64,000 bases of DNA, taken from positions 100,817 to 164,816 of the forward strand of contig NDHX01000001.1 of the NCBI GenBank assembly GCA_013626165.1. Direction: 5' to 3'. The notes below the pieces were generated by a model. That model was not told the DNA's origin. It saw only the letters and a list, made by a program, of their open reading frames with translations, and made no database searches. Origin of the DNA: Candidatus Velesiimonas alkalicola (GTDB lineage: Bacteria; Omnitrophota; Gorgyraeia; Velesiimonadales; Velesiimonadaceae). The position numbers were made by a program, and so were the translations under genes. Of the stretch, positions 3,049 to 63,812 are shown one piece after another. How positions within the stretch are numbered: position 1 is the first letter of the stretch; every line of letters starts with the position of its first letter.

Positions 3049-4593
3049 ATGGAAAGTAAAGAAATTTCAAAGTCTGCCAGAGGTGTGGGGCTTGCAATAG
3101 CATTAAGCAGGGGCTTAGGCTTGGTCCGAGATATAATTGTTGCAGCAGTATTCGGAAGAAGTATTTCTGCACAGGCGTTTGTTGTTGCTTTCAGGATACC
3201 AAATCTTCTCAGGGACCTTGTTGCAGAAGGTGCGGCAAATGCAAGTTTTGTTCCTGTTCTTTGCGAAGAAGAAAAAAAGTCAGAACAGAATTTTAAAGAC
3301 ACTGCATTTGCATTGGGAAACATTCTGTTTGTTGCCCTTATTATCTTAACAATATTGGGGATGATATTTTCACCCTTACTTGTAGGGCTGTGTGCGCCGG
3401 GGTTTTTACTTGAACCCCAAAAATATAGCCTGACTGTTAAACTTACCCTCATTCTTTTCCCGTATATCCTTCTTGTCGGTGTTTACGCATTTTTTATGTC
3501 TGTCCTAAATGTGAAACATCTTTTTCTTACAAGCGCATTAGGACCGTGTTTGATGAATATCGGTATGATTGCGGGTGCATTGTCTTCATATTTTTTATTA
3601 CAGGGTTCTATATTCGGTCTTGCAGCAGGTGTGCTTGTGGGGGGGGTTTTTCAGATTCTTATACAAATTCCACAAATAAAAAAAAGTATTTTTTCGTGGA
3701 AGTTTTTCTTTGCTCCCAGTATGCCATCTGTTAAAAAAGCATTTAGACTTCTTTTGCCAAGGATATTTGGAAGTGCTGTATATCTTGCAAATACATTTGT
3801 AGATACTATATTTGCATCCCTGACATTTCTTGTTGGTCAGGCAGGTGTTATTGCAATATATTACAGTGGCCGCCTTTTTCAACTCCCGCTTGCAATTTTT
3901 GGAGTGTCCATTTCAAGTGTCAGTCTGCCGATTCTTTCTGCCTCTGCTATTGATAGTGATAAAGAGAAATTTGTTCAAGTCATTTCACATTCGTTAAGGG
4001 TTATAATCTCTGTCCTTCTTCCCTCGTCTGCTTTTTTTATAGCACTGGGGTATCCTGTAATAAAGGTTTTTTTTCAAAGAGGGGCATTTGATACATATGC
4101 TGTGAATATTACAAATGATGCTCTTATATTCTATTCAATAGGACTTTTTTCATATGGGTGCGTAAAGGTTTTGGTAAACGGGTTTTATGCGATGCAGGAT
4201 ACAAAAACGCCTGTCCAGATTTCTTTTATCTGCCTTATTTTAAATATAATATTAAACATAATCCTTGTTAGATTTTTGAGGATTTCTGGTATTGCACTTG
4301 CAACATCTATTTCAAGTTTTGTCAATTTTTCTTTGCTTGGAATAATATTAAGAAAAAAAATTGGAAGAATTGATGGAAAAAGGATATCTATTACATTTGC
4401 AAAAAGTCTTGTCCTTTCGGTGATTTTTGGTTTTTCTATATTTTTTTTATACATATTTTTCAAAAGTATTTTTGGCGATATAACCGGTCTTTTATTTTCT
4501 GTGCTTACAGGGATTATTTTGTTTCTCTCTTTAGGATGGTTATTAAAAATTAACGAGATATGGGAAGTTGTGCCGATATTGAAAAAAAGATAG
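3049..4593 (+). CDS. murJ: lipid II flippase MurJ (MviN)
   Basis: N-terminus ..LSRGLGLVRDIIVAAVFG..AFVVAFRIPNLLRDL.. and a 514-aa polytopic architecture typical of MurJ. Confidence 0.9.
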   Translation: MESKEISKSARGVGLAIALSRGLGLVRDIIVAAVFGRSISAQAFVVAFRIPNLLRDLVAEGAANASFVPVLCEEEKKSEQNFKDTAFALGNILFVALIILTILGMIFSPLLVGLCAPGFLLEPQKYSLTVKLTLILFPYILLVGVYAFFMSVLNVKHLFLTSALGPCLMNIGMIAGALSSYFLLQGSIFGLAAGVLVGGVFQILIQIPQIKKSIFSWKFFFAPSMPSVKKAFRLLLPRIFGSAVYLANTFVDTIFASLTFLVGQAGVIAIYYSGRLFQLPLAIFGVSISSVSLPILSASAIDSDKEKFVQVISHSLRVIISVLLPSSAFFIALGYPVIKVFFQRGAFDTYAVNITNDALIFYSIGLFSYGCVKVLVNGFYAMQDTKTPVQISFICLILNIILNIILVRFLRISGIALATSISSFVNFSLLGIILRKKIGRIDGKRISITFAKSLVLSVIFGFSIFFLYIFFKSIFGDITGLLFSVLTGIILFLSLGWLLKINEIWEVVPILKKR

Positions 4594-5999
4594 AACAGAT
4601 CTCTCATCAGCCGGGTGTATATATTTTCAGGGACCACAAAGGAGATGTTCTTTATATAGGTAAGGCTGCTGACTTAAAAGACAGGGTAAGGTCTTACCTG
4701 AGACAGCCATTGTTGCTTAAAATCTCTATTATGATGCAGAAAGTAAAGGGTGTCCATATCCTTACAACATCTGATGAAAAAGAAGCCCTGCTATTGGAAA
4801 ATGCACTGATAAAACAATATAAGCCACCTTATAATATGAAGTTAAGAGATGATAAAGATTATCCTCTGATATGTATAAGTGAAGAAAAGTTCCCAAGAGT
4901 AGCAATCGGCAGAAGAAAAAGATTTTTAAAGTTAAAAGCGGAATGTTTTGGTCCTTATCCCGATGCCACTGCTTTAAGAAAAGCACTATCTACGGTAAGA
5001 AGAATAATACCGTACAGAACCTGTATAAATCTCCCCAAAAGGCACTGTATATATTATCCCTTAAAATTATGTCCTGCTCCCTGTGAAGGCAGGATTTTAA
5101 GACAGGATTATGCAAGTCTTATAAAACAGTTAAAGCTGTTTTTACAGGGCAAAAGACAGAAGGTTATAAGAAATATTCATACCCGGATGCAAAAGTTAAG
5201 TGATGAACAAAAATATGAACAGGCAAAGATTGTAAGAGACAAAATATATTTGCTTGAAAAAACTGTCCAGAGGCTAAAACAATCTTATGATGTAAGCGTC
5301 CCTTCAATACTTGGTGAATTGTTTGAAACAAAAAAAGATATAAATATTATAGAAGGGATAGATGTTTCAAATATATCCGGGGTGCATCCTGTGGGAAGTG
5401 TTGTAAGGTTTGTAAGATGCAGACCCTTTAAATCCGAATACAGAAGGTATAGAATATTATCATCAGAAAGAAGCGATGCAGGGATGCTTTCTGAGGTTGT
5501 TCATAGAAGGTACGGAAAATTATTAGAAGAAAAAAAACAGATGCCAGACCTTATTCTTGTTGATGGTGGAATTGCACAGGCAAATGCCGCAAAAAGGATT
5601 TTAAACGGATTGAGGATTTTATCTGTCTGTGTTGCAGGGCTTGCAAAAAAGCAGGAATGGTTATTTGTTCCGGGTAAAAAAGAGCCGATAGTTTTATCCA
5701 GAGATTCCGCTTCCCTGCAGGCTTTACAAATGGTAAGGGATGAAGCACACAGGTTTGCTATGAGTTATCATAAAAAAATAAGAAGCAGGTCTGCTATTCA
5801 TTCAATTCTTGATGATATTTCCGGTATAGGTCCTGTACGAAAAAGTAGGATAATATCAGAGTTTGGCTCTGTTGAAGGAATTATATGTGCAGGCTATGAA
5901 AAGGTTGCAAAAACCGCAGGTTGTAGTATAGAAACTGCAAAGAAGTGGATTGAACGGATGGTTAAATTTAGTCCACAGTTCGCAGTCCATAGTCGATAG
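4560..5999 (+). CDS. uvrC: excinuclease ABC subunit C (compact form)
   Basis: GIY-YIG N-terminus (PGVYIFRD..VLYIGKA), a UVR domain, an RNaseH-like domain and a C-terminal HhH (ISGIGPVRK). Overlaps the murJ 3' end. Confidence 0.85.
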   Translation: MGSCADIEKKIEQISHQPGVYIFRDHKGDVLYIGKAADLKDRVRSYLRQPLLLKISIMMQKVKGVHILTTSDEKEALLLENALIKQYKPPYNMKLRDDKDYPLICISEEKFPRVAIGRRKRFLKLKAECFGPYPDATALRKALSTVRRIIPYRTCINLPKRHCIYYPLKLCPAPCEGRILRQDYASLIKQLKLFLQGKRQKVIRNIHTRMQKLSDEQKYEQAKIVRDKIYLLEKTVQRLKQSYDVSVPSILGELFETKKDINIIEGIDVSNISGVHPVGSVVRFVRCRPFKSEYRRYRILSSERSDAGMLSEVVHRRYGKLLEEKKQMPDLILVDGGIAQANAAKRILNGLRILSVCVAGLAKKQEWLFVPGKKEPIVLSRDSASLQALQMVRDEAHRFAMSYHKKIRSRSAIHSILDDISGIGPVRKSRIISEFGSVEGIICAGYEKVAKTAGCSIETAKKWIERMVKFSPQFAVHSR

Positions 6000-6026
6000 T
6001 CTATTAAAAACGGAAGGAGTGTGAAA

Positions 6027-8606
6027 ATGGCTATAACAGGTTCTATTGTTTTATCCATCCTTGAGAGCGGATTTTCAAAATTTTCACAGCACCAGACTGT
6101 TGTAAGACAGTTGTCAAATGGCATGGATGTTATAGTGTGTTCAATGGGTGAAAACAATTCGGCATCTGTTCAGGTATGGGTTGCAGCAGGAAGCTCAACC
6201 GAATACCAATGGTCGGGGGCCGGTATATCACACCTTCTTGAACATATGATATTTAAGGGTTCATCAAAAATAACAGGAAAACAGATCGGAGACAGGGTTA
6301 AGGCTATCGGGGGTAAAATCAATGCATATACCTCACATGAAAGAACAGTATTTTTTATTGACTGTCCTAAAGAATATGTTAAAGATGCAATAGAGATTTT
6401 ACATATGATACTTTCGGAGCCTTTGTTTGACCGGCAGGAACTTGAAAAGGAAAAAAATGTAATATTAAGAGAAATGGATATGAGACAGGATTCTCCTGAT
6501 AGGGAAATATCTGAGACACTGTGGGAGACTGCATTCAGGGTTCATCCGTATAAGATTCCAGTGATAGGATATCCTGAACTTTTTAAGAAACTTACAAGAG
6601 AAGACCTTGTAAAATATTATAAGAATTTCTATGGCTCAGAACACTGTGTTCTTGTTGTTGCAGGTGGTATCCAGATTGAAGATGTATTAAAAAAAGCAGA
6701 AATATTTTTCAGTTTTCAAAGGTCCGGTCCTGTTAAAAATCCGGTTGCTCTGGAGCCTCCTCAACTTTCACAAAAAAAGATTCGCAAGACTATGCCTGTG
6801 GATATTGCAAGGTTCATCACTGCATTCCATGGTCCAAGTTTTTATTCACCAGACCTTTATCCGATGGATATGCTTTCTGTTATACTCGGGCAGGGTAGAC
6901 CTTCAAGACTCTATCAAAGACTTATTCAAAAAGAAAATCTTGTATATTCAGTGGACAGCTGGTCTTATACACCGAAAGACCCCGGACTTTTTGGTATATA
7001 TTGCACACTTGATGCAAAAAATTTCGAAAAGGTTGAAAGAATTATTTTTGAAGAAATAGAAAAAATAAAAGAACAGGGTGTAAAAGACGAAGAGATACAA
7101 AGAGCAAAAACAAAAATAGAAAGCGAATATCTTTTTTCAATCCAGACCGCACATGGAACCGCAGCAGATGTAGGTTCTAACTTTGTATTTACAGCAGACC
7201 CGGATTTTTCGGTTTTATATCTAAAAAACATAAAAAAGGTTGATGCTGTATCAATAAGAGAAGCCGTAAAAAAATACCTAACAAATGAAAGATCTGTTAT
7301 TGCAGAACTCTGCTCAGAAGAAAAGAAGACAGTAGAACAGGGTAAGACTGAAAAAGAGTTTTTATCTGTGGAAGAAATAAAACTTCACAATGGGATAAGA
7401 CTTGTTATCCGTCCGAATCCATATGCAAACCTAGTAAGCATAAAGGCTCTTTTCCTTGGTGGGTTAAGAACAGATGAACAGCCCGGCAGTTCCATCGTCC
7501 TTTCTTCAATGCTGGAGTCCGGAACAAGTAAATACAATGCACAGGAACTTGCACTTGAGATAGAAAAAATTGGGGGGCAGAGTTCTGTACATACAGGTTA
7601 CAACTCAATAGGTTGGACAATAGAGGTTCCGCCTGACAATACAGGGAAGGCAATGGACATAATGAAGTCTGTACTTGAAGACTCAGTTTTTCCTGAGGAT
7701 GAGTTCAGTTTAAAAAAATCTCAGGCAATTGCAATAGCAAAACAGGGTTATGAACAGCCCATACATATTGCTCTGAATAGATTGAGAAAAGAACTGTTTG
7801 GAAAACATCCCTACTCAAATCCTCCGGATGGGAATCCAGGTGATTTACAGGATATAAAAATAGAAACGGTTATAAAGCAGGCAGAAGACATAATAAATCC
7901 TCAAAATATGGTTTTATCAATATTCGGGAATTTTTCTAAAAAAGAAACAGAAGACAAAATAAAAGCATCTTTTGGTTCAATCAAACCTGGGAAAGAATTT
8001 AAAATTCAACAGATTCCTTTAGATTTTCCAGAAGCGCCGAAGACCATTGAAGAAGAATTTGATGGAGAAGGGGCCTGTATTGTAATAGGTTTTCCCGGCA
8101 CAACAATGTATTCAGATGACAGATATATATTAGATGTGCTTGCCAATGCAATGAATGACCAGGGTGGAAGTCTTTATCATAGGTTGAGAGATGAAAAGGC
8201 ACTTGCGTATAGTCTTGGCTCTGCAAATATATCCGGGATTGAACAGGGTGCATTCATATTCCATATACTTACATCTAAGGAGAATGTTAAAGAGGCACAT
8301 ACTGAGATACAGAGGTTTATCAATTCTTTAGCAGAACAAATAGAAGAAAAATCAATTGAACTTGCAAAGGCAGAAGCCATAGGCGCACAGGTTCTTCAAA
8401 CACAGACAGAAGGTGGGCTGGGATTTGCAGTGGGTCTGGATGTCTTGTATGGGATGGGGGCAGATAATCAGGAAAAAAGTCTTGAAAAAATAAAAAGAAT
8501 AAAAATAAAAGATGTAAAAGATGTAATACAAGAATATTTTAATCAGGACAGAAAGGTTACAGTTATACTAGGACCAAAGGATACCCAGAACATAGGTGAC
8601 AGGTGA
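6027..8606 (+). CDS. M16-family zinc metallopeptidase, two fused pitrilysin-like modules
   Basis: Inverted zinc motif HLLEHMIFKG...E. ~855 aa, consistent with two modules. ATG at 6027 is 7 nt after AGGAG. The stop TGA is supplied by the GGTGACA repeat. Confidence 0.8.
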   Translation: MAITGSIVLSILESGFSKFSQHQTVVRQLSNGMDVIVCSMGENNSASVQVWVAAGSSTEYQWSGAGISHLLEHMIFKGSSKITGKQIGDRVKAIGGKINAYTSHERTVFFIDCPKEYVKDAIEILHMILSEPLFDRQELEKEKNVILREMDMRQDSPDREISETLWETAFRVHPYKIPVIGYPELFKKLTREDLVKYYKNFYGSEHCVLVVAGGIQIEDVLKKAEIFFSFQRSGPVKNPVALEPPQLSQKKIRKTMPVDIARFITAFHGPSFYSPDLYPMDMLSVILGQGRPSRLYQRLIQKENLVYSVDSWSYTPKDPGLFGIYCTLDAKNFEKVERIIFEEIEKIKEQGVKDEEIQRAKTKIESEYLFSIQTAHGTAADVGSNFVFTADPDFSVLYLKNIKKVDAVSIREAVKKYLTNERSVIAELCSEEKKTVEQGKTEKEFLSVEEIKLHNGIRLVIRPNPYANLVSIKALFLGGLRTDEQPGSSIVLSSMLESGTSKYNAQELALEIEKIGGQSSVHTGYNSIGWTIEVPPDNTGKAMDIMKSVLEDSVFPEDEFSLKKSQAIAIAKQGYEQPIHIALNRLRKELFGKHPYSNPPDGNPGDLQDIKIETVIKQAEDIINPQNMVLSIFGNFSKKETEDKIKASFGSIKPGKEFKIQQIPLDFPEAPKTIEEEFDGEGACIVIGFPGTTMYSDDRYILDVLANAMNDQGGSLYHRLRDEKALAYSLGSANISGIEQGAFIFHILTSKENVKEAHTEIQRFINSLAEQIEEKSIELAKAEAIGAQVLQTQTEGGLGFAVGLDVLYGMGADNQEKSLEKIKRIKIKDVKDVIQEYFNQDRKVTVILGPKDTQNIGDR

Positions 8607-8634
8607 CAGGTGACAGGTGGCTGATGGCTGATGA
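8595..8634 (+). repeat. tandem repeat (GGTGACA)x3 followed by (GGCTGAT)x2, overlapping the stop of the peptidase gene
   Basis: Direct reading: ggtgacaggtgacaggtgacaggtggctgatggctgatga. Confidence 0.8.
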
Positions 8635-20991: not shown

Positions 20992-21064
20992 GCTGCTGTA
21001 GCTCAGTCGGCAGAGCACGTCCTTGGTAAGGACGGGGTCATGGGTTCAATTCCCATCAGCAGCT
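20992..21064 (+). tRNA. tRNA-Thr (anticodon GGT)
   Basis: Cloverleaf folds by hand: acceptor GCTGCTG/CAGCAGC, D arm GCTC..GAGC, anticodon stem CGTCC/GGACG with loop TTGGTAA, T arm ATGGG-TTCAATT-CCCAT. CCA is not encoded. Confidence 0.9.
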
Positions 21065-21148
21065 TTAAAAAAATATAAAAGAAAAAATACTTAAAGGCAA
21101 AAAGTAAAGTGACTGGTGCCTGATGCACTGGCAAACAGGAGGTAAAAA

Positions 21149-22351
21149 ATGGCAAAAGAAAAATTTCTCAGGACAAAACCGCATGTAAATGTAGGGACCA
21201 TAGGACATGTTGACCATGGAAAAACAACACTGACAAGTGCAATAACAAAAGTATTATCTAGCAAGGGATTGGCTCAGGCAAAGACATTTGAAGAAATAGA
21301 TAATGCGCCTGAGGAAAGAGAAAGAGGAGTAACAATAAATGTACACCATGCGGAATATCAAACACAGAACAGGCACTATGCACATGTGGACTGTCCAGGT
21401 CACGCAGACTATATAAAGAATATGGTTACAGGAGCGGCACAGATGGACGGAGCAGTATTAGTGGTAAGTGCAGTAGATGGTCCTATGCCGCAGACAAGAG
21501 AACACATACTTTTGGCAAGACAGGTGGGAGTTCCTGCAATGGTGGTGTTCTTAAACAAAACAGATGCAGTAGAAGATAAAGAATTAGTAGATTTAGTTGA
21601 AATGGAAGTGCGAGATTTATTAAGCAAATATGAGTTTCCTGGGGATAAGATACCGGTGGTAAGAGGAAGTGCATTAAATGCAATGAACTGTGGATGTAGC
21701 AAAGATGATTGTCCAAACTGCAAGTCCATACTGGAATTGATGTCAGCAGTAGATAGCCATATACCTGAGCCTGTAAGAATAACGGACAGGGCATTTTTAA
21801 TGTCCGTAGAAGATGTATTTAGCATAAGCGGCAGAGGAACAGTAGGAACAGGAAGAGTAGAAAGAGGAATAGTCAAAGTAGGAGAAGAAGTAGAAATAGT
21901 AGGGATACAGACAGAGAGCAGAAGGACAGTAGTAACAGGGGTAGAGATGTTCAGGAAGTTGTTAGACGAAGGAAGAGCAGGAGACAACATAGGGGTATTG
22001 TTAAGAGGGATAGAAAAAAAAGACTTAGAAAAAGGGATGGTCATATCGGCACCAAATACAATAACGCCACACACACAATTCAAGGCACAGGTATATGTAT
22101 TAACAAAAGAAGAAGGTGGAAGACACACACAATTTTTCAGCGGCTACAGGCCTCAGTTTTTCTTCAGGACAACAGATGTAACAGGAGTAATAACATTACC
22201 GCAAGGAACAGAAATGATAATGCCTGGCGACAATGTATCTGCAACAGTAGATCTGATAGTACCTGTGGCAATGGAAAAAGAGCAAAGATTTGCAATCCGC
22301 GAAGGAGGAAAGACAATAGGAGCAGGCGTGGTAACAGAGATAATAAAATAA
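21149..22351 (+). CDS. tuf: elongation factor Tu (copy 1, tufB-like position after tRNA-Thr)
   Basis: [23 protein letters not shown]. 400 aa. It differs from copy 2 by one residue. Confidence 0.95.
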
Positions 22352-22401
22352 CAGGAGATAGTAGGTGGGAGGTAGTAGGTAGGAAAGAAATAGGGGAAAG
22401 A

Positions 22402-23961: not shown

Positions 23962-24157
23962 AGGTGACTGGCATAAGAGGCAGGAGGTAGTAGGTAGTAG
24001 ATAGTAGGTAGGAGGTAGTAGGTAGTAGATAGTAGGTAGTAGGTAGGAGGTAGGATAAAAAATGGGGACTGGCGACTGGAACCCCGGGCACCAGGGTATC
24101 CTTCAGAACGGGGTTTGTATCTTCGGATACTTTCCGGGTGTGGCACTTCGGAGAACG
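23962..24157 (+). repeat. composite mosaic repeat: GGTGACTGG connector + (G[T/G]AG[G/A]TA)n heptamer array + GACTGG..GGCACCAG + module A (49-nt conserved hairpin block)
   Basis: Heptamers at 23983-24054. Module A cggggtttgtatcttcggatactttccgggtgtggcacttcggagaacg at 24109-24157 is identical to 46902-46950. Confidence 0.75.
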
Positions 24158-32700: not shown

Positions 32701-33720
32701 TACACAATCTCAATAGTTTCAGAAGTATCAGGGCGTGTCCAGTATATGGATATAAGATCCGGTGTTACAATGCGTGAAGAATTAGACCCTGCCACAGGTA
32801 TCACAGGCCGTATTATTACAGAACACAAGGGAGATTATTATCCACAGATATTGATAAAAGATGAAAAAAATGAGATTCTTGCAACATATCCTGTCCCAAC
32901 AGGTGCTCATATAATGGTAGATGAAAAACAGGAAGTTGAAAGTGGCGATGTGATAGCAAAGACACCAAGAAAGATAACAAAGACAAAAGATATTACAGGT
33001 GGGCTTCCGAGGGTTGCAGAACTTTTTGAAGCAAGAAAGCCCAAGAACCCTGCGATAATAAGTGACATCTCAGGTGTTGTTGATTTTGGTCCTGCAAAAA
33101 GAGGACACAGAAGAATCATTGTAAAGAATCCTCAAACACAGGATGAAAGAGAATACCTTGTCCCGTCAGGGAAGCATATCCTTGTGTATAAAGGTGACAA
33201 TATAACAGCGGGACAGCAATTAACAGATGGCCCTGTTGTTTTACAGGATATATTAAAAACACTTGGAGATAAGGCGTTGCAAGAATATCTTGTTAATGAA
33301 ATACAGGAAGTATACCGTCTTCAGGGTGTTCGTATAAATGATAAACATATAGAAGTTATTGTTCGTCAGATGATGAGAAGAGTAAGCATTACAGACCCCG
33401 GTAATTCGGATTTTCAGGAAGGAATGCATGTTGATAAATTTAAGTTTAATGATGTGGTTACTGCATTAAAAAAGAAGAATAAAAATTTGCCTAAGGCCAT
33501 GCCAACACTTCTCGGTGTAACAAAAGCATCTTTAAGCACGGAAAGCTTTATCTCTGCTGCAAGTTTTCAAGAAACGACGCGTGTTCTTACAGAGGCGGCC
33601 TTAGCCGGTAAAAAAGATTTTCTCCTTGGATTAAAAGAAAATGTTATTATGGGGCATCTAATCCCAGCAGGGACAGGGTATCACTCACATCATGAATTTG
33701 AGATAGAAAGGGAAAAATAG
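29752..33720 (+). CDS. rpoC: DNA-directed RNA polymerase subunit beta'
   Basis: Zn finger CYCGKY...[25 protein letters not shown], and so on. The TAG stop is the first unit of the heptamer array. Confidence 0.95.
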
Positions 33721-33985
33721 TAGGTAGGAGGTAGTAGGTAGGAGGTAGGAGGTAGGAGGTAGGAGGTAGGAGGTAGGAGGTAGTAGGTAGTAGGTAGGAG
33801 GTAGGAGGTAGTAGGTAGGAGGTAGGGAAAAAAATGGTGACGGATGACTGGTGACAAGCGACTGGAACCCGGGCACCAGTGCACCAGAGCACCCTCTGGG
33901 TGGGGGTAAAACATAATCCCCCGACCCATCCTTTGGATGGGTGCCCCGCCCCTCCTTTTGTAAAGGAGGAGGGGTGGATTATGGT
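33718..33985 (+). repeat. composite mosaic repeat: heptamer array (33718-33826) + GGTGAC../GGCACCAG connector + module B (~70-nt three-hairpin element, 33912-33983)
   Basis: Module B core cataatcccccgacccatcctttggatgggtgccccgccc.tccttttgtaaag...ggggtggattat is shared with 41711-41783. Confidence 0.75.
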
Positions 33986-34023
33986 TTGAAAAAATTTGTG
34001 TCTAATAAAAAAGAAAGAATAAT

Positions 34024-34407
34024 ATGCCAACTATAAGTCAATTGATAAGATTTGGAAGAGCAAGAATTAAAAAGAAGACAAAATCACCTGCATTAAATAA
34101 ATGCCCACAGAGAAGAGGGGTTTGTCTGCAGGTAAGAACTATGACACCCAAGAAGCCAAACTCTGCTTTGCGCAAGATTACCAGAGTCAGGCTTACCAAT
34201 GGTATAGAGGTTACTGCATATATACCCGGTGAAGGACACAACCTTCAAGAACACTCTATTGTATTGGTTCGTGGAGGCAGAGTAAAGGATCTTCCGGGCG
34301 TCCGATATCATACTGTAAGGGGAACACTTGACACAGCGGGTGTTGAAAACAGAAAAAAGAGCCGTTCTAAATATGGGACAAAAAGACCGAAGGAACAGGC
34401 TAAATAA
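34024..34407 (+). CDS. rpsL: 30S ribosomal protein S12
   Basis: [10 protein letters not shown]....[25 protein letters not shown]. Confidence 0.95.
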
Positions 34408-35142: not shown

Positions 35143-37218
35143 ATGGAAGTAAAATATACTTTACAAAAATTACGCAATGTAGGTATTATTGCACATATTG
35201 ATGCAGGGAAAACAACTACCACAGAGAGAATTCTCTATCATGCTGGAACCATTGATAGAATGGGAAATGTTGATGATGGAACAACACAGACAGACTGGAT
35301 GGTTCAGGAAAGGGAAAGAGGTATAACTATTACAAGTGCCTGTACCACCAGTTTTTGGAAAGACTGCAGAATAAACATCATAGATACACCGGGGCATATT
35401 GATTTTACCGTAGAGGTAGAAAGAAGTTTAAGGGTTCTTGACGGTGCGGTTGTGATATTCTGTGCTGTAGGAGGAGTTGAGTCTCAATCTGAAACAGTAT
35501 GGAGACAGGCAGATAGGTATCATGTTCCAAGGATTGCTTTTATTAATAAAATGGACAGGATAGAAGCAGATTTTTTTGGAACCCTGAAACAGATACAACA
35601 AAGACTTGGCGCAAATGCAGCAGCGGTTGAGATACCCATAGGGGTTGGACAAAATTTAGAAGGTGTTATAGACCTTATTAAAATGAAATCTCTTATCTAT
35701 GATATTAAAGACATTACAGGTAGATTTAAGGTTGGTTCAGTTTCACCTGACCTTTTAGAAATGGCAAAACTGTATCGCGCAAAACTTATTGAGTCTGTCG
35801 CAGAGACCGATAAAAATATTATGGAAAAGTTTTCGCACGATCAGGAAATAAAAGAAGGAGAACTATCATCTGCCATAAGAAGACAGACGATAGCAGGAAA
35901 GTTTGTTCCGGTTCTTTGCGGTTCATCACTTAAAAATATAGGTGTTCAACCTATTTTAGATGCAGTTGTAGACTGGTTGCCAAGCCCGGTTGATGTCCCC
36001 CCTGTTCAGGGGATTGTTCAGGGTAAAGATGTAATAGAACAAAGGAAAGCATCGGATGATGAGTATTTTTCTGCACTTGCATTTAAGATAATGATAGATC
36101 CATATGTTGGAAAACTCACATTTTTAAGGGTCTATTCAGGCATACTAAAATCAGGTTCCTACATATATAACGTAAGCAGGGACAAAAAAGAAAGAATTGG
36201 AAAACTTCTTAAAATGCATGCAAACAGGCAGGAAATAATTGAAGTGGTAAAAACTGGAGATATTGCTGCTGCTGTAGGACTAAGAGAAACAAAAACGGGT
36301 GATACCATATGTGATGAACAACATCCTGTAATCCTTGAGTCCATGCATTTGCCACAGCCTGTTATATCCCTTGCAATTGAACCTTTGACAAGACAGGATC
36401 AGGATAAACTTTCTCTTGCACTTTCAAGATTGCAGGACGAAGACCCTTCGTTTTGTGTTTCTTATAATGAAGAGACGGCACAGACGCTTATTTTGGGTTT
36501 TGGAGAATTGCATCTTGAAATAATTGTTGACAGATTGAAAAGAGAATTCAATGTTCAGACACAGGTTGGAAAACCGCATGTTGCATATAAAGAAACATTG
36601 ATTAAACCTGTAAGACAGGAAGGAAAGTTTGTGCAGCAGAGCGGCGGGCGTGGACAGTATGGGCATGTCGTATTTGAGATAGAGCCCATAGAAAGAGGTT
36701 CAGGAATAGTGTTTGAAAGTGCGCTACGCGGAACAAGTATACCCAGAGAATATGTTCCCTCTATAGAACAGGGAGTAATAGAATCCGCACAGACAGGACC
36801 TTTGGGAGGATTTCCTGTTGTAGATGTAAAGGTAGTGCTTATAGATGGCTCATACCATGAAGTAGATTCTTCAACATTCGCATTCAAGATGGCAGGCTCT
36901 ATCGGATTTAGCGCAGCACTTAGATCGGGGGGTTCAATGCTCCTTGAGCCTATTATGGATGTGGAGGTTGTGGTTCCTGAGGAATATTTAGGCGATGTAA
37001 TTGCTGATATGGGAGCTCGCAGGGCAAAGATAGAACAACTTTCACAGAGAGGCAATGTCCGTGTTATAAGAGGATTTATTCCTCTTTCAGAGCTTTTTGG
37101 ATATGCAACTGCTGTTCGTTCTGTAAGTCAGGGAAGGGCATCATATGTAATGCAGCCAGCATATTATGCAGAGGTTCCAAAAAATATAAAAGAAAAAATA
37201 CTTAAAGGCAAAAAGTAA
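35143..37218 (+). CDS. fusA: elongation factor G
   Basis: Start at MEVKYTLQKLRNVGIIAHIDAGKTTTTERILY, aligned to the EF-G N-terminus. The listed ORF starts 18 codons earlier. Confidence 0.93.
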   Translation: MEVKYTLQKLRNVGIIAHIDAGKTTTTERILYHAGTIDRMGNVDDGTTQTDWMVQERERGITITSACTTSFWKDCRINIIDTPGHIDFTVEVERSLRVLDGAVVIFCAVGGVESQSETVWRQADRYHVPRIAFINKMDRIEADFFGTLKQIQQRLGANAAAVEIPIGVGQNLEGVIDLIKMKSLIYDIKDITGRFKVGSVSPDLLEMAKLYRAKLIESVAETDKNIMEKFSHDQEIKEGELSSAIRRQTIAGKFVPVLCGSSLKNIGVQPILDAVVDWLPSPVDVPPVQGIVQGKDVIEQRKASDDEYFSALAFKIMIDPYVGKLTFLRVYSGILKSGSYIYNVSRDKKERIGKLLKMHANRQEIIEVVKTGDIAAAVGLRETKTGDTICDEQHPVILESMHLPQPVISLAIEPLTRQDQDKLSLALSRLQDEDPSFCVSYNEETAQTLILGFGELHLEIIVDRLKREFNVQTQVGKPHVAYKETLIKPVRQEGKFVQQSGGRGQYGHVVFEIEPIERGSGIVFESALRGTSIPREYVPSIEQGVIESAQTGPLGGFPVVDVKVVLIDGSYHEVDSSTFAFKMAGSIGFSAALRSGGSMLLEPIMDVEVVVPEEYLGDVIADMGARRAKIEQLSQRGNVRVIRGFIPLSELFGYATAVRSVSQGRASYVMQPAYYAEVPKNIKEKILKGKK

Positions 37219-37259
37219 AGTGACTGGTGCCTGATGCACTGGCAAACAGGAGGTAAAAA

Positions 37260-38462
37260 ATGGCAAAAGAAAAATTTCTCAGGACAAAACCGCATGTAAA
37301 TGTAGGGACCATAGGACATGTTGACCATGGAAAAACAACACTGACAAGTGCAATAACAAAAGTATTATCTAGCAAGGGATTGGCTCAGGCAAAGACATTT
37401 GAAGAAATAGATAATGCGCCTGAGGAAAGAGAAAGAGGAGTAACAATAAATGTACACCATGCGGAATATCAAACACAGAACAGGCACTATGCACATGTGG
37501 ACTGTCCAGGTCACGCAGACTATATAAAGAATATGGTTACAGGAGCGGCACAGATGGACGGAGCAGTATTAGTGGTAAGTGCAGTAGATGGTCCTATGCC
37601 GCAGACAAGAGAACACATACTTTTGGCAAGACAGGTGGGAGTTCCTGCAATGGTGGTGTTCTTAAACAAAACAGATGCAGTAGAAGATAAAGAATTAGTA
37701 GATTTAGTTGAAATGGAAGTGCGAGATTTATTAAGCAAATATGAGTTTCCTGGGGATAAGATACCGGTGGTAAGAGGAAGTGCATTAAATGCAATGAACT
37801 GTGGATGTAGCAAAGATGATTGTCCAAACTGCAAGTCCATACTGGAATTGATGTCAGCAGTAGATAGCCATATACCTGAGCCTGTAAGAATAACGGACAG
37901 GGCATTTTTAATGTCCGTAGAAGATGTATTTAGCATAAGCGGCAGAGGAACAGTAGGAACAGGAAGAGTAGAAAGAGGAATAGTCAAAGTAGGAGAAGAA
38001 GTAGAAATAGTAGGGATACAGACAGAGAGCAGAAGGACAGTAGTAACAGGGGTAGAGATGTTCAGGAAGTTGTTAGACGAAGGAAGAGCAGGAGACAACA
38101 TAGGGGTATTGTTAAGAGGGATAGAAAAAAAAGACTTAGAAAAAGGGATGGTCATATCGGCACCAAATACAATAACGCCACACACACAATTCAAGGCACA
38201 GGTATATGTATTAACAAAAGAAGAAGGTGGAAGACACACACAATTTTTCAGCGGCTACAGGCCTCAGTTTTTCTTCAGGACAACAGATGTAACAGGAGTA
38301 ATAACATTACCGCAAGGAACAGAAATGATAATGCCTGGCGACAATGTATCTGTAACAGTAGATCTGATAGTACCTGTGGCAATGGAAAAAGAGCAAAGAT
38401 TTGCAATCCGCGAAGGAGGAAAGACAATAGGAGCAGGCGTGGTAACAGAGATAATAAAATAA
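37260..38462 (+). CDS. tuf: elongation factor Tu (copy 2, str-operon position)
   Basis: Identical to copy 1 except A vs V at one position (gca vs gta). Confidence 0.95.
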
Positions 38463-38467
38463 CAGGA

Positions 38468-38549
38468 GATAGTAGGTGGGAGGTAGTAGGTAGGAAAGAA
38501 ATATTTTTTCCTATCTACTACCTACTATATCCTACCTCCTATATTTTTT
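38468..38549 (+). terminator. intrinsic terminator built from a heptamer array and its inverted copy, followed by TTTTTT
   Basis: gatagtaggtgggaggtagtaggtagg ...loop... cctatctactacctactatatcctacctcctata then tttttt. This is the only place in the window where the heptamer occurs as its reverse complement. Confidence 0.6.
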
Positions 38550-38560
38550 GGGGGAAAGAG

Positions 38561-38864: not shown

Positions 38865-39012
38865 GTCTGCTGAAAAACTCATCAGACCTTAAAATCGGTG
38901 TAATCTTTCCAAAATCTGTGTAATCAGGGCTTACTGGATGTGTTAATATAACACAGTAAGCCCAGTCTTTAAGAGCACCAGAGCACCAGAGCACCAGTGC
39001 ACCAGTTATAGA
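38865..39012 (+). repeat. spacer with two hairpins (GGTCTG..CAGACC; GGGCTTACTG..CAGTAAGCCC) and a (GAGCACCA)x4 octamer array
   Basis: Read directly. The octamers are the reverse complement of the TGGTGCTC family. Confidence 0.6.
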
Positions 39013-40689: not shown

Positions 40690-41511
40690 ATGGGAATAAA
40701 AACATATAAGCCGACAACCCCTGGGTCAAGATGGAAAACAGGTTATACATTTGAAGAAATTACAAAACAGGCGCCGGAAAAATCGTTGATAACTGTTTTA
40801 AAAAAAAAAGGTGGCCGCAATATACACGGTCATATTACAATAAGACACAGGGGTGGCGGCAATAAAAGAAGGTACAGGAGTATAGATTTTAAAAGAGATA
40901 AAACAGACGTGCAAGGCAGAGTGGTAACAATTGAATATGATCCTAACCGTTCTTCAAGGATTGCACTTATACAATATCCAGACGGAGAAAAAAGATATAT
41001 TATATGTCCTCTTGATCTAAAAATAGGAGATACAGTTGCATCTGGTCCTGATGTAGATATAAAGCCCGGCAACGCACTTCTGTTAAGAAAAATACCGACA
41101 GGCACAATTATTCATTGTCTTGAATTGCATCCTGGCAGTGGAGCAGCACTTATCAGAAGCGCAGGGGCATCAGCACAGATGGTTGCAAAAGAAGGTAAAT
41201 ATGCGCATATCAGAATGCCCTCAGGCGAGGTAAGGCTTTTTAGTCTTAATTGTTATGCAACAATAGGACAGGTAGGGAATATAGAACACGGCACAATTTC
41301 TCTTGGCAGAGCCGGTAGAGCAAGGCATATGGGAAGAAGGCCAAAAGTTCGTGGTGTTGCAATGAATCCCCATGACCATCCGATGGGCGGAGGTGAAGGG
41401 AAAGCTTCCGGTGGACAGCCAAGAAGTCCGTGGGGTCAGTATGCAAAAGGATTTAAGACAAGGAAGAAACACAAGGTTTCTGATAAATACATAGTTAAAA
41501 GAAGAAAGTAA
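40690..41511 (+). CDS. rplB: 50S ribosomal protein L2
   Basis: [18 protein letters not shown]..., [31 protein letters not shown]. Confidence 0.95.
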
Positions 41512-41518
41512 AAGAAAC

Positions 41519-41790
41519 AGTAGGTAGTAGATAGTAGATAGTAGGTAGTAGGTAGTAGGTAGTAGGTAGTAGGTAGTAGGTAGTAGGTAGTAGGTAGTAG
41601 ATAGTAGGTAGTAGGTAGTAGATAGGAGATAGTAGGTAGGAAAAAAAATGGTAACTGGTGACCGGTGACTGGAACCCCGGGCACCAGGGCACCCTTTGGG
41701 CAGGAGAAAACATAATCCCCCGACCCATCCTTTGGATGGGTGCCCCGCCCTTCCTTTTGTAAAGAAAGGCAGGGGTGGATTATCTTTTCT
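41519..41790 (+). repeat. composite mosaic repeat occupying the canonical rpsS slot: heptamer array (41519-41640) + GGTAACTGGTGACCGGTGACTGG/GGCACCAG connector + module B
   Basis: Module B at 41711-41783 is shared with 33912-33983 and differs by a few changes inside the hairpins. Confidence 0.75.
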
Positions 41791-41811
41791 AGGATTTAAT
41801 GGGGAATTGAC

Positions 41812-42180
41812 ATGGCAAAAAAAATAGATACAAGAATTGTTTCAAAAGCATTTGCTCGTTATATAAGAATGACACCGAGAAAGGTAAGGGGTGTTATTGA
41901 CCTTGTTCGTGGTAAAAGGCTTAAACTGGCATATTCAATACTCATCGGTGTTAACAAGTCTGCAAGGCTGCCAGTTGAAAAAGTTATAAAATCGGCGGAG
42001 ACAAATGCAAAAAGGTCTTCTCCTACTATAGACACAAGCGGCCTTATTATAAAACATATATGGGCAGATGAAGGTCCCTTGCTTGGATATGGGAAAAGAT
42101 TCAGGGCTGCTCCGATGGGAAGGGCTATGCAAATAAAAAAAAAGACCTGTCATATCGGGGTGGAATTAGCAGTAAAATAA
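41812..42180 (+). CDS. rplV: 50S ribosomal protein L22
   Basis: ARYIRMTPRKVRGVIDLVRGKR...IWADEGP...HIGVELAV. This is L22, not S19. Confidence 0.9.
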   Translation: MAKKIDTRIVSKAFARYIRMTPRKVRGVIDLVRGKRLKLAYSILIGVNKSARLPVEKVIKSAETNAKRSSPTIDTSGLIIKHIWADEGPLLGYGKRFRAAPMGRAMQIKKKTCHIGVELAVK

Positions 42181-42215
42181 TAGTAGATAGTAGGTAGTAG
42201 GTAGTAGGTAGGAGA
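42181..42215 (+). repeat. heptamer array (TAGTAGATAGTAGGTAGTAGGTAGTAGGTAGGAGATGGAGGT) supplying the SD for rpsC
   Basis: GGAGGT lies 6 nt before the GTG start of rpsC. Confidence 0.65.
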
Positions 42216-42227
42216 TGGAGGTAAAAT

Positions 42228-45993: not shown

Positions 45994-46066
45994 CAGGTGA
46001 CAGGTGACCGGTGCACTGGTGCACTGATGCACTGATGCACTGATGCACTGGTGCACTGGTGCACTA
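45994..46066 (+). repeat. GGTGACAGG + octamer array (GCACTGRT)x7
   Basis: caggtgacaggtgaccggtgcactggtgcactgatgcactgatgcactgatgcactggtgcactggtgcact. Confidence 0.75.
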
Positions 46067-46659: not shown

Positions 46660-46950
46660 AAAAAATGGTGACTGGCATAAGAGGCAGGAGGTAGTAGGTA
46701 GTAGATAGTAGGCAGTAGATAGTAGGTAGTAGATAGTAGGTAGTAGATAGTAGGTAGGAGGTAGGATAAAAAATGGGGACTGGCGACTGGAACCCCTGGC
46801 ACCAGGGTATCCTTCAGATGGGGGGGGGATTATGTTTTGAATTTATTTGTAATTTGAGATTTGTTTAAGATTTCCTCGTTAGAAGTAAAAAAACTTCTAA
46901 ACGGGGTTTGTATCTTCGGATACTTTCCGGGTGTGGCACTTCGGAGAACG
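46660..46950 (+). repeat. composite mosaic repeat: GGTGACTGG connector + heptamer array (46677-46766) + GACTGG..GGCACCAG + G-run + module A (46902-46950)
   Basis: The first ~150 nt are near-identical to 23962-24100. Module A is identical to 24109-24157. Confidence 0.75.
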
Positions 46951-49883: not shown

Positions 49884-50588
49884 GTGAAAACAATAAAACT
49901 GATATTTTTAGGCCCTCCCGGTGCAGGAAAAGGGACACAGGCGGTTAATCTTGCAGTGCAATGGGAAACGCTTCATATATCCACCGGCGATATATTAAGA
50001 GAGTCTATAAAGAATAAAGAACCTTTAGGATTGAAAGCTAAAAACTATATGCTCAAAGGTGAACTTGTTCCGGATAACATTGTGATATCTATGGTGATGG
50101 AAAAAATAAGTAGCAATACCAATAATAAAGGATTTGTATTAGATGGATTTCCCAGAACATCCAATCAGGCTAAAAAACTTGATACTGTAATGGCAGATGA
50201 AGGGATAATTTTAGATGCTGTGGTGTATTTTGAAACATCTGAAGAAACTGTATTAAGGAGACTTTCCGGGAGAAGGGTGTGTAGAAATTGTGGTGCAAAT
50301 TATCATCTAACCAATATGCTTCCCAAGATTGCAGGTGTATGTGATAAATGCAAAGGCCCACTATACCATAGAGAAGATGATAAACCAGAGGCCATAAGAA
50401 AAAGGCTTGAAGTTTATAAGAATAAAACAACACCGTTATTGAATTATTATAAAAAAAGTGGTTTATTGAAAACAATAAACGGAGATTTGGAAGTCCAAGA
50501 AGCGTTTGAAGAAATAAAAAACAAGGTAACTGGTGCCTGGTGCTCTGGTGCCTGGTGCTCTGGTTTTTTAAAAGATGATACCTGTTAA
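49884..50588 (+). CDS. adk: adenylate kinase (zinc-lid type) with a repeat-encoded C-terminal tail
   Basis: GPPGAGKGTQA, the lid CRNCGANYH..CDKCKG. The last ~20 aa (VTGAWCSGAWCSGFLKDDTC) are read from the CTGGTGC array. Confidence 0.9.
   Translation: MKTIKLIFLGPPGAGKGTQAVNLAVQWETLHISTGDILRESIKNKEPLGLKAKNYMLKGELVPDNIVISMVMEKISSNTNNKGFVLDGFPRTSNQAKKLDTVMADEGIILDAVVYFETSEETVLRRLSGRRVCRNCGANYHLTNMLPKIAGVCDKCKGPLYHREDDKPEAIRKRLEVYKNKTTPLLNYYKKSGLLKTINGDLEVQEAFEEIKNKVTGAWCSGAWCSGFLKDDTC
50527..50563 (+). repeat. (CTGGTGCCTGGTGCT)x2 15-nt tandem repeat inside the adk 3' end
   Basis: ggtaactggtgcctggtgctctggtgcctggtgctctgg. The 15-nt period keeps the reading frame. Confidence 0.75.
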
Positions 50589-51360: not shown

Positions 51361-51576
51361 ATGCCAAAAGAAGAAGCAATTGAGGTTGAGGGCAAAATTA
51401 TAGAATCTCTTCCAAACGGGATGTTCAGGGTTGAACTTGATAATGGACATCGTTTACTTGCACACCTTAGCGGGAAGATGAGACTTAATTATATAAAACT
51501 ATTGCCGGGTGATCGTGTAAAAATGCAGGTGTCTCCTTACGACCTAAATAAGGGAAGGATAGTTTATAGAATATGA
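51361..51576 (+). CDS. infA: translation initiation factor IF-1
   Basis: [32 protein letters not shown]. Confidence 0.93.
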
Positions 51577-51578
51577 AA

Positions 51579-51607
51579 TAGTAGGTAGTAGGTAGGAGGT
51601 AGGGGGG
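51579..51607 (+). repeat. heptamer array (TAGTAGGTAGTAGGTAGGAGGTAGGGGGG) forming the SD of rpmJ
   Basis: Read directly. Lies between the infA stop and the rpmJ ATG. Confidence 0.65.
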
Positions 51608-51726: not shown

Positions 51727-51777
51727 ACAATGAAACAAGATGACTGGTGCTCTGGTGCCCTATAATTGGGGGGAGAA

Positions 51778-54407: not shown

Positions 54408-54879
54408 AAAGGATAATAAAAGACTTTCACGCACCACAGGACATAGAACAGCAATGGTAAGAAATATGGCAACCAGCCTTTTTGAAAATGAAAAAATTAC
54501 AACAACTGTTCAGAAGGCAAAATTTTCAAGAAGGTTTATTGAAAAACTCATAACATTTGGAAAAAAAAATACACTTGCTGCAAGAAGAATGACTGAAAAA
54601 ATGCTTGGTAAAAAAAACATTGTCCATATGCTTTTTAGTGAAGTTGCGCCCTTATTTGCCAATAGACAGGGAGGATATACAAGAATTGTAAAAAGCAAAT
54701 TCAGGGCAGGTGATGGGGCACAATTATGTGTATTTGAACTTGTAGAAAAAAGGCAGAAGTCTATTGAACAGCCAGAGCAGGCTGTAGATAAGAAGACTGT
54801 AGAAAAACATCCCACTCAACCTACAGAAGAAAAAAAAGGTGCAATTAAAAAAATAAAGAGAATATTCCACAGAAAATAG
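54397..54879 (+). CDS. rplQ: 50S ribosomal protein L17
   Basis: [25 protein letters not shown]. The TAG stop is the first heptamer unit. Confidence 0.93.
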
Positions 54880-54931
54880 TAGGTGGTAGATAGTAGGTAG
54901 TAGATAGTAGATAGTAGGTGGTAGATAGTAG
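54877..54931 (+). repeat. heptamer array (TAGTAGGTGGTAGATAGTAGGTAGTAGATAGTAGATAGTAGGTGGTAGATAGTAG)
   Basis: Read directly, downstream of rplQ. Confidence 0.7.
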
Positions 54932-54974
54932 AAAAAACAAATATCAAACTGCTCGTGTGTTCTTGAGAGAAGGT

Positions 54975-63744: not shown

Positions 63745-63812
63745 GGTGACAGGCGACCGGCAACAGATGCTCTGGTGCTCTGGTGCTCTGGTGCCCTGGT
63801 GTTCCAGTCACC
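63745..63812 (+). repeat. GGTGACAGGCGACCGG + (GCTCTGGT)x4 octamer array + inverted GGTGACTGGAA
   Basis: ggtgacaggcgaccggcaacagatgctctggtgctctggtgctctggtgccctggtgttccagtcacc. Confidence 0.7.

Follow-up and report, generated by a model that had tools for sequence, protein, structure and literature searches.

A palindromic repeat, probably REP-like and not a ribosomal-protein leader, precedes rpsL and rplV in an Omnitrophota genome

We analysed a stretch of 64,000 nucleotides (nt) from Candidatus Velesiimonas alkalicola (Omnitrophota; contig NDHX01000001.1, positions 100,817 to 164,816), hereafter the window, in which a structured element that we call module B stands immediately upstream of two ribosomal-protein genes, rpsL and rplV. 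Module B is very probably a copy of a small, non-autonomous palindromic DNA repeat resembling the repetitive extragenic palindromes (REPs), and not a ribosomal-protein leader. The element is a dispersed, structure-conserving palindromic repeat that is gained and lost at a scale of 21-30 nt and is tolerated in frame within genes. Its variation preserves pairing in all three stems, and it has no link to a particular gene.

Module B is a non-coding element of 72-82 nt with a closing inverted repeat of 8-12 bp. Copy A occupies 33912-33983 on the + strand and ends 40 nt 5' of the rpsL ATG (34024), and copy B, also on the + strand, occupies 41711-41783 and ends 28 nt 5' of the rplV ATG (41812). In copy A the closing-stem arm CATAATCC (33912-33919) pairs with GGATTATG (33976-33983), the stem extending to about 33907-33988, and encloses the 21-nt core hairpin GACCCATCCTTTGGATGGGTG (33923-33943) with its CCCCG tail (33944-33948), followed by a second hairpin, CCCCTCCTTTT-GTAA-AGGAGGAGGGG (33949-33974). 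In copy B CATAATCC (41711-41718) pairs with GGATTAT (41777-41783) around the core hairpin (41722-41742), its tail (41743-41747) and hairpin 2 (41748-41775). Both closing stems extend through (T/G)AAAAC / G(G/T)TTT(G/C). A truncated third instance on the + strand at 46816-46841, in the rplF-rplR spacer, retains the 3' end only (GGGGGGGGGATTATGTTTTGAA); its 5' closing arm, core and hairpin 2 are gone, and a G-run joins it to the left arm of the longer repeat described below. A search with GGATTATGNTTTGAA returned two matches, which supports this instance, and none of 100 shuffles reached two.

A previous reading of the window from its sequence alone (the sequence-only reading) had proposed the two full copies, and both are real, co-oriented and far above chance, with a 24-nt probe from the element matching the window twice against 0.00 expected. 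The first hairpin had been described as the same in both, and it lies within 44 shared identical nt (33908-33951 / 41707-41750). The differences fall in hairpin 2, which varies yet folds, as proposed, through pairing-preserving transitions plus a bulge between the copies. The closing stem, given as an identical 8 bp, is so in its 5' arm, but the 3' arm of copy B reads GGATTAT-C and leaves 7 bp. The two core hairpins are the only perfect GC-rich hairpins in the 64-kb window (stem of at least 7 bp, loop of 3-7 nt), and the element has a GC content of 54-57% in a genome of 38% GC. Each copy folds into a closing stem, hairpin 1 and hairpin 2, with z = -5.2 for copy A and z = -3.7 for copy B relative to shuffles, and the minus strand folds equally well (z = -5.8 and -5.2).

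Based on seven three-way-junction copies, we built a covariance model, R1, which has exactly two matches in the window, scoring 84 bits for copy A and 77.6 bits for copy B. Its top tier, above 70 bits, holds eight copies, namely A and B together with those at loci L018, L019, L035, L044, L054 and L072. To be called intragenic, a copy had to have 80 or more open codons to its left and to its right in a frame that stays open across the core; Pfam and PDB comparisons served as added confirmation. By this strict test three of the six top-tier copies outside the window are inside genes (L018, L019 and L044), and L054 is intergenic; L072 overlaps a 193-residue open reading frame (ORF) that fails the test, and L035 overlaps unverified ORFs only. 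A second tier has the core and a similar second hairpin, and a long tail of matches at ~27 bits is recognised through the core only.

The 20 best copies, aligned by fitting them to the model, served to measure covariation. Paired cells amount to 90.6%, compared with 82.8% in shuffled alignments, and the covariation score is 0.204 compared with 0.090; neither value was reached in 500 shuffles, and slid controls gave at most 0.086. Both-sided changes occur in five of the eight closing-stem pairs and three of the five hairpin-2 pairs, the core being invariant in this set because the loci were selected by it. As far as the aligned copies can tell, the fold is maintained through sequence change. 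The selection on structure suggested by the sequence-only reading thus finds support in the fold, but an RNA element tied to rpsL or to ribosomal-protein genes does not. Since transcription units have copies on both strands, it is more plausible that the structure of a DNA element is being maintained than that of a functional RNA.

The core is not confined to the window. We scanned 185,579 species genomes, one per bacterial or archaeal species, for the pattern GACCCATCC-NNN-GGATGGGTG with a free loop; all counts for the core family in this text rest on the 120 genome stretches among the matches listed and are lower bounds. These stretches contain at least 115 core copies, and about eight of the listed matches look like chance, being without the tail and set in unrelated flanks. 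The core unit is the hairpin G-ACCCATCC-NNN-GGATGGGT-G of 21 nt with an unpaired 3' tail, CCCCG, after it, and the matches without the chance-like ones give the family consensus c-G-ACCCATCC-N3-GGATGGGT-G-CCCCG. Bases outside the search pattern and filter are also conserved (tail positions +4 C, 97%; +5 C, 90%; +6 G, 84%; and -2 C, 83%). The loop is always 3 nt long and variable in sequence, with TTC and ACT dominant. The stem is near-invariant, and such variation as it has is compensatory (ACCCATAC/GTATGGGT, ACCCATGC/GCATGGGT, ACCCATTC/GAATGGGT and AACCATCC/GGATGGTT). The core is single-copy in 107 of the 111 loci, and the only close pair, at L086, lies 54 nt apart head-to-tail.

The hosts carry the labels of several phyla. 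Those labelled Nitrospinota include several groundwater metagenome-assembled genomes (MAGs) of ~39% GC, one of which has at least 22 loci, and one MAG labelled Omnitrophota has at least 12 loci with at least 14 copies. Other labels are NC10/Methylomirabilota and 'Deltaproteobacteria', Thermodesulfobacteriota and Desulfuromonadaceae, with single records labelled Elusimicrobia, Eisenbacteria, Baltobacteraceae and Peptococcaceae. The window shares no orthologous genes with the fetched core loci of the 'Nitrospinota' MAGs. Within a genome, similarity around the core extends over only 100-250 nt, and the repeat units contain no ORF. The context of the core varies by lineage, from three-way junctions like those of the window to longer composite repeats in NC10, 'delta' and Omnitrophota genomes, and some cores are inserted in the middle of 7-8-nt tandem repeat arrays, the repeat unit changing with the locus. 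Units related to the tandem repeats of the window flank the core in Nitrospinota MAGs, for example ACTGGTGACTGGTGC-core-CCCCGGACTGGTGACC.

The core was absent from 2.9 million viral contigs and from phage and plasmid records, so that no vector was identified there. Rfam returned no relevant family on 18 core loci from other lineages, and a full-text literature search for the core as DNA or RNA found only unrelated primers and aptamers. The core also holds two inverted GGATG sites (33923-33948 and 41722-41747 with the tail), and the conserved tail ends exactly 9 nt past the right-hand site, which may be a coincidence. FokI-type IIS enzymes recognise GGATG and cut at a distance of 9/13 nt from it.

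The orientation of the copies is not biased. Compared with the neighbouring ORFs, 21 copies point the same way as both and 18 the opposite way, with 10 and 7 mixed. Judged by GC skew, the core lies with the forward strand G-rich in 40 of 74 loci (p = 0.56). IS200/IS605-like lagging-strand transposition of single-stranded DNA was considered as a route and rejected, the replication-strand bias that it predicts being absent from these 74 loci. No protein family recurs within 1.5 kb of the cores in the fetched loci; inverted core pairs, present in L114 and L080, flank ordinary genes, and no insertion sequence (IS) with matching ends was found in the fetched core loci.

Many copies lie inside genes. 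In the low-GC loci, 19 of the 46 copies among the matches listed are intragenic by the strict test, 11 in sense and 8 in antisense to the host ORF. Ten host genes are confirmed by Pfam domains that span the insert or lie beside it: FtsK, class II ribonucleotide reductase (RNR), a UvrD/AddA-type helicase-nuclease, MnmE, shikimate dehydrogenase (AroE), UvrC, an OtsA-OtsB fusion, Lnt, a PMT-family glycosyltransferase and an MFS fusion. When compared with solved homologues, aspartyl-tRNA synthetase (AspRS) has an insert of ~42 residues and two further inserts rich in P, S and G, RNase R has an insert of 16 residues, and the ABC exporter at L044 is longer by 11 residues. The core has no stop codon in any of its six frames and is translated as DPSTGWVP, PTHPLDGC, RPIHRMGA, GHPSSGWV or GTHPVDGS, the first four of which occur in FtsK, RNR, UvrC, MnmE, RNase R, AspRS and others. 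The survival of intragenic copies would be due to the GC-rich core being stop-free in all six frames and to its insertion or deletion amounting to seven codons.

The closing stem of the copy in the ABC exporter, TATAATCCCC/GGGGATTATA, is the same as the CATAATCC/GGATTATG of the window. Since ATAATCC/GGATTAT is thus common to the window copies and L044, it probably travels with the element. We considered the possibility that the variable stems are inverted copies of the target, but the closing stem shared by L044 and the window suggests otherwise. The residues that follow the insert in RNase R align to host sequence. In the shikimate dehydrogenase gene, the core stands at the same position in two Nitrospinota genomes (L060, 7157; L074, complement of 2518-2538); the flanks are nearly identical and the loops differ (ACT versus AGT), which indicates that some copies are stably inherited.

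Gain and loss of the unit can be followed in RNase R, whose orthologues (72-96% identity) show five states at one site. The filled state reads KIP-RPIH(R/L/W)MG..-PFKKG, the partial state KIPHP..PPLKK and the empty state KIP----------VFKKG; another group of alleles has a different short sequence at the site, KIDSRLR--GNKFHP, and the outgroups have no insert. At the DNA level, L137 has ATTCCCC followed by GACCAATCCACTGGATGGGTG and then ACCCGCCCCCTTT, and L135 has ATTCCCC followed directly by ACCCGCCCCCTTT, so that the two differ by exactly the 21-nt hairpin, or seven codons, with no duplication at this junction of filled and partial alleles. The empty alleles are 30 nt shorter than the filled ones. 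In the tree obtained from 672 ungapped columns, filled alleles do not group together but are sister to partial, empty and no-insert alleles, so that at least four events of gain or loss are needed. The partial alleles consist of the closing stem and hairpin 2 without the core, which indicates that module B is a scaffold with a core nested in it. RNase R (L018, orthologues P0004-P0037) also has further polymorphic inserts rich in P, S and G that lack the core, namely ACSDPESSSGES, PSPESSP..GEGG and PLHPSFTKGG, and AspRS (L118) has the likewise core-less inserts PPSSLPSQGGVKG and PPSPQSSFLGGEGHGEGGAK. These look like modules of the hairpin-2 type inserted alone.

In the window, module B is part of something larger. 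Its size had been put at ~70 nt, which falls well short of the repeat, as both copies form the right end of a composite of ~270 nt that runs in the order heptamer array, A-run, GGTGAC/GCACCAG repeats and module B. Before copy A, the heptamer array (33718-33826, + strand) has 15.6 copies of GTAGGAG/GTAGTAG, the first TAG being the rpoC stop codon, and is followed by a left arm (33827-33906, + strand) made of the A-run, GGTGAC-type repeats, GACTGGAACCCGGGCACCAG and a short CACCC-TCT-GGGTG hairpin. Before copy B, the array (41519-41639, + strand) has 17.3 copies of GTAGTAG and the left arm spans 41640-41706 on the + strand. The left arm of copy A recurs at 41640-41706, 24054-24100 and 46765-46815, so that four spacers of the window have a common left arm and differing right modules. 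In the rplK-rplA spacer the same left arm is followed by a different right module, and in the rplF-rplR spacer it is followed by the truncated remnant of module B (46816-46841) and then by a module of the rplK-rplA type.

These observations suggest how the element may work. In the lineage of the window, the scaffold around the core is a closing inverted repeat ((G/T)AAAACATAATCC...GGATTAT...) together with a second hairpin of the form C/T-rich...A/G-rich. Core and scaffold make up a ~70-nt three-way junction that serves as the swappable right module of a mosaic of heptamer array, left arm and variable right module. We infer that gain and loss of the unit take place at the DNA level, that the hairpin or a cruciform is the structure recognised or reactive, and that an enzyme whose gene lies elsewhere in the genome would propagate the unit in trans. 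Palindrome excision or slippage probably accounts for losses, and selection would keep only those intragenic copies that preserve the frame. It is rather doubtful that the mobiliser is a hairpin-specific enzyme of the HUH type, similar to the REP-associated tyrosine transposases (RAYTs), or another nuclease-recombinase, because a GTAG tag, dimers and a strand bias are missing and no RAYT is linked to the cores in the fetched loci. The element most likely rides as a passenger in the rpoC-rpsL and rpsS-rplV spacers, although a stable structure before a start codon could incidentally affect the stability or processing of the mRNA. A bolder proposal, which we regard as possible but more doubtful than not, is that the 21-nt hairpin with its CCCCG tail is an ultra-small mobile element complete in itself, several times smaller than any MITE, the class of miniature transposable elements with inverted repeats. 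By horizontal spread it would have reached at least five bacterial phyla of groundwater and sediment, moved by a hairpin-specific enzyme that, given the lack of a GTAG tag, of dimers and of a strand bias, would be unlike RAYT or IS200. It would nest preferentially in hairpins and tandem repeats that already exist, giving rise to structures such as module B, and colonise essential genes in frame at a rate rivalled only by the palindromic elements of Rickettsia.

Several points weigh against reading module B as a mobile DNA repeat. The alignment used for covariation was model-fitted, the copies are related, and the stems are low-complexity runs of C and of G; when seven copies are simply aligned with MAFFT, covariation is limited to 3 of 21 pairs and its term is unfavourable. 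The absence of a strand bias counts against transposition in the style of IS200/IS605, and no transposase or other mobilising enzyme was found near the cores in the loci examined, which are not whole genomes. Direct repeats of the kind left by target-site duplication flank neither copy A, copy B nor the L044 copy, and there is no GTAG or CGTC tag; the known mechanisms of REPs with RAYTs and of MITEs can therefore not simply be assumed. The RNase R polymorphism could reflect repeated loss or allelic recombination instead of new insertion, and a local effect at the RNA level on the expression of rpsL or rplV is possible. Finally, nearly all the evidence comes from MAGs, and these repeats demonstrably cause mis-assembly. 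Separately, CCCCG was considered as a target-site duplication and rejected, since a 5' flank of CCCCC-G is found in the module-B class only and differs elsewhere.

An alternative would be that module B is an autoregulatory leader, that is, a three-way-junction RNA in the 5' untranslated region that is bound by S12, L22 or another ribosomal protein and controls the str and S10 operons. Both window copies do lie 28-40 nt 5' of ribosomal-protein starts and in the direction of the gene, the RNA fold is stable (predicted at -33 to -40 kcal/mol), and the stems covary. The shared orientation claimed for the copies holds but is uninformative, because every gene in that part of the window is on the + strand, where tuf-secE-nusG-rplKAJL-rpoBC-rpsLG-fusA-tuf is followed by the S10, spc and alpha operons. 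What makes a leader highly improbable is that the family occupies more than 100 unrelated loci in several phyla, on both strands and without orientation bias, including sense and antisense positions inside ORFs, and that the minus strand folds just as well. Moreover, the orthologous rpsS-rplV spacer of a relative with 75% L22 identity (L131) is without the core, and no leader family was matched in Rfam: at the gathering threshold the whole window gives only two tRNAs, and at E <= 10 the sole match on 33600-34100 is manA at 16 bits, which is noise. The sequence-only reading had named absent covariation together with random orientation as the outcome that would reduce module B to a repeat; random orientation is what was found, and the stems covary, so that one half of that outcome came about.

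A selfish origin need not preclude later use, and intergenic copies might have been co-opted as RNA elements, acting as a barrier to 3' exonucleases in the rpoBC/S10 mRNA, as an RNase processing site or as a partial terminator or insulator. The junction of rpoC and rpsL is one of the classical operon boundaries, the hairpins combine great stability with a GC content that is high for a genome of 38% GC, and a consensus terminator scan marks hairpin 2 of copy A as terminator-like, though two sites against 0.9 expected is no enrichment. REPs and the mosaic repeats known as bacterial interspersed mosaic elements (BIMEs) are reported to act in this way (PMC3733652, PMC3184786). We nevertheless consider co-option unlikely, as neither copy is followed by a proper T-run or intrinsic terminator, no promoter-like site adjoins either copy on the + strand (the sole match, near copy A, is on the minus strand), termination within the S10 operon, where copy B stands, would do harm, and the family has no preferred orientation. 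The core palindrome (8 + 3 + 8 bp) might also be the double-stranded binding site of a conserved nucleoid, segregation or regulatory protein of the host, its conservation then reflecting function and not mobility. The inverted repeat is perfect and has a variable 3-bp spacer, its half-sites are invariant across phyla among the matches listed, and there are precedents such as parS for conserved palindromic protein-binding sites. Such a role is very unlikely, however, given that the compensatory changes keep intrastrand pairing and not a fixed half-site sequence, that the CCCCG tail is asymmetric and copies are nested in longer hairpins, and that in-frame copies stand in many unrelated genes and are polymorphic among close orthologues. 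That the second copy is an assembly artefact, one real element having been duplicated or misplaced, is extremely improbable. Assemblies are indeed unreliable at these repeats, as seen in the loss of rpsS from the window, the chimeric L129, the N-gaps of L128 and L130 and the jump from rpsC to secY in L131; but each copy was recovered independently with a unique right flank and its own variant of hairpin 2. A dispersed REP-like DNA repeat thus remains our preferred reading of module B.

The assembly problems deserve a fuller description. No gene for S19 (rpsS) is found anywhere in the window, including the S10 operon (41511-41812), and copy B had been placed in the rpsS slot. The window L22 protein is identical to the NCBI L22 of 'bacterium Unc6', and three other assemblies carry an L22 identical to that of the window. 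Sister scaffolds with this identical rplV keep an intact rpsS directly upstream of the composite repeat, which contradicts that placement: L128 and L130 start 15 nt upstream of an intact rpsS and continue downstream of it with ...TAGACACCATAGGAGATAGTAGATAGTAG, an N-gap, copy B and rplV. L131 and the more distant L124 also have the order rplB-rpsS-rplV, and a metagenome scan with L22 found only distant relatives, of at most 56% identity, with the normal rplB-rpsS-rplV order. Heptamer arrays follow both rplB and rpsS, and the window assembler therefore most likely merged the arrays and dropped rpsS; the absence of rpsS is most likely a collapse across two heptamer arrays, probably at 41519-41639, and not a biological loss. 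In L129, the left arm of copy A is joined to the right half of copy B, and short-read contigs with the rpsL of the window begin inside the element. Copy A was recovered in L001 and L002, and copy B with its right flank in L128, L129 and L130; both copies are real because each was recovered independently with its own right flank. The core-less rpsS-rplV spacer of L131 is 263 nt long and contains other repeats, including an inverted TTTAGAG array and (CTGGTGCAC)n. At 4304-6146 of the same record, rpsC is followed directly by secY, with rplP through rplO skipped, probably through a repeat-mediated assembly collapse.

The spacers of the window are rich in further repeats. RTAGKAG heptamer arrays stand directly after the stop codon in many spacers of the ribosomal-protein operons (22353-22384, 23978-24053, 33718-33826, 38464-38495, 41519-41639, 42181-42216, 46682-46764, 51575-51604 and 54876-54932). 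They put TAG in all three frames and repeat the Shine-Dalgarno-like AGGAGG. Other 7-8-nt tandem repeats, with the units AGGTGAC, AGAGCACC, GGTGCACT and CTGGTGCY, occur at 8594-8619, 38972-39005, 46010-46065, 50530-50564, 51735-51761 and 63768-63801, the one at 50530-50564 being inside the 3' end of the adk ORF. A second two-copy module of 57 nt, 96% identical between its copies (ACGGGGTTTGTATCTTCGGATACTTTCCGGGTGTGGCACTTCGGAGAACG), comes after the left arm shared with module B, upstream of rplA (24101-24157) and of rplR (46894-46950). Between the second tuf and rpsJ (38464-38550) lies a long terminator-like hairpin, made up of a heptamer array, an imperfect reverse complement of that array and a T-run (…GGTAGTAGGTAGGAAAGAAATATTTTTTCCTATCTACTACCTAC…TATATTTTTT). 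Over 300 nt (21061-21360 versus 37172-37471), including ~90 nt 5' of the start codon, the two tuf copies share 99% identity, and the heptamer stubs after both tuf stop codons are identical (22344-22384 and 38455-38495).

With its covarying stems and its three-way junction ahead of rpsL, module B resembles a new ribosomal-protein leader, and its recognition as a dispersed repeat removes a tempting false positive. These repeats also break or collapse assemblies of the lineage, as in the loss of rpsS from the window and the skipping of rplP through rplO in a relative, and they add inserts of 7-40 residues to core enzymes that can be mistaken for lineage-specific domains. The family is unusual in detail, with a 21-nt core shared across phyla, local scaffolds that differ, and ~40% of copies in frame in one lineage among the matches listed. 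It offers a free-living counterpart to the palindromic elements of Rickettsia and the small dispersed repeats of cyanobacteria, and a handle for finding the enzyme that moves REP-like elements without a RAYT.

Among known systems, the REPs are the closest, particularly those of the CGTC type. REPs comprise GTAG- and CGTC-tagged superfamilies (Di Nocera et al. 2013, PMC3733652). As that paper describes them, they share with the core family a GC-rich stem-loop of 20-40 nt, an 8-9-bp stem starting with an A-T pair, a short conserved unpaired tail and tens of copies or more per genome in several phyla. Some of their units are likewise intragenic, several of them in replication or repair genes (here UvrC, the UvrD-like helicase, FtsK and RNR), and CGTC REPs similarly have no adjacent transposase. 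No REP sequence quoted in the text of that paper matches the core. Measured against the same description, the core family differs in having neither GTAG nor CGTC next to the stem (0 of 115 copies among the matches listed), its flanks being C-G on the 5' side and G-CCCCG on the 3' side; in its loop, which is always 3 nt, compared with 4-5 nt in CGTC REPs; and in the absence of head-to-head, REPIN-like dimers, 107 of 111 loci among the matches listed being singletons. The nesting of the core in lineage-specific scaffolds is a further difference.

Rickettsia palindromic elements (RPEs) are palindromic selfish repeats, a large fraction of which lie in frame in unrelated housekeeping genes (review PMC10969869). 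They resemble the core family in their in-frame insertion into housekeeping ORFs, in encoding a conserved short peptide and in their decaying or variable copies among relatives. RPEs (RPE-1 to RPE-10), however, are ~150 bp long and confined to Rickettsia, which are obligately intracellular, and RPE-4 and RPE-6 are CGTC REPs, whereas the hosts of the core family are free-living, uncultured and of several phyla, and its unit is a core of 21-27 nt or a module of ~70 nt. It lacks the CGTC tag, and its hosts are unrelated to Rickettsia; no relationship to RPEs in sequence was seen, though no alignment of RPE sequences was made. BIMEs of E. coli and BOX elements of S. pneumoniae are mosaic intergenic repeats (PMC3184786) and are modular in the same manner, with short palindromic units variably combined with other motifs and tandem sub-units. 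Their module sequences differ, and in the window a long heptamer array and 7-8-nt tandem repeats are integral to the mosaic; no IHF or gyrase-type motifs are evident in the composite repeats of the window.

Like MITEs, module B is non-coding, shorter than 500 bp and bounded by terminal inverted repeats (the closing stem of 8-12 bp), has a stable fold, exists in multiple copies, and shows empty and filled sites among relatives. The sequence-only reading had held the structured end of a MITE-like repeat in reserve, and this came close to the truth, although the element is GC-rich and not AT-rich, has no target-site duplication and has no parent IS with matching ends in the fetched loci, and its polymorphic unit of 21-30 nt is far smaller than any MITE. 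The small dispersed repeats (SDRs) of Nostoc and cyanobacteria, described by Elhai et al. (2008; cited in PMC3116915), are reportedly 21-27 nt long, mobile by comparison of orthologous loci, often embedded in other repeats, hairpins and heptamer tandem repeats, and without a known transposase. On that description, they match the 21-nt core in scale and in nesting, with its exact 21-nt difference between orthologues and its position in tandem repeats and hairpins, and differ from it in host phylum and probably in sequence. Taken together, the core family is best read as a new REP-like family of small palindromic repeats.

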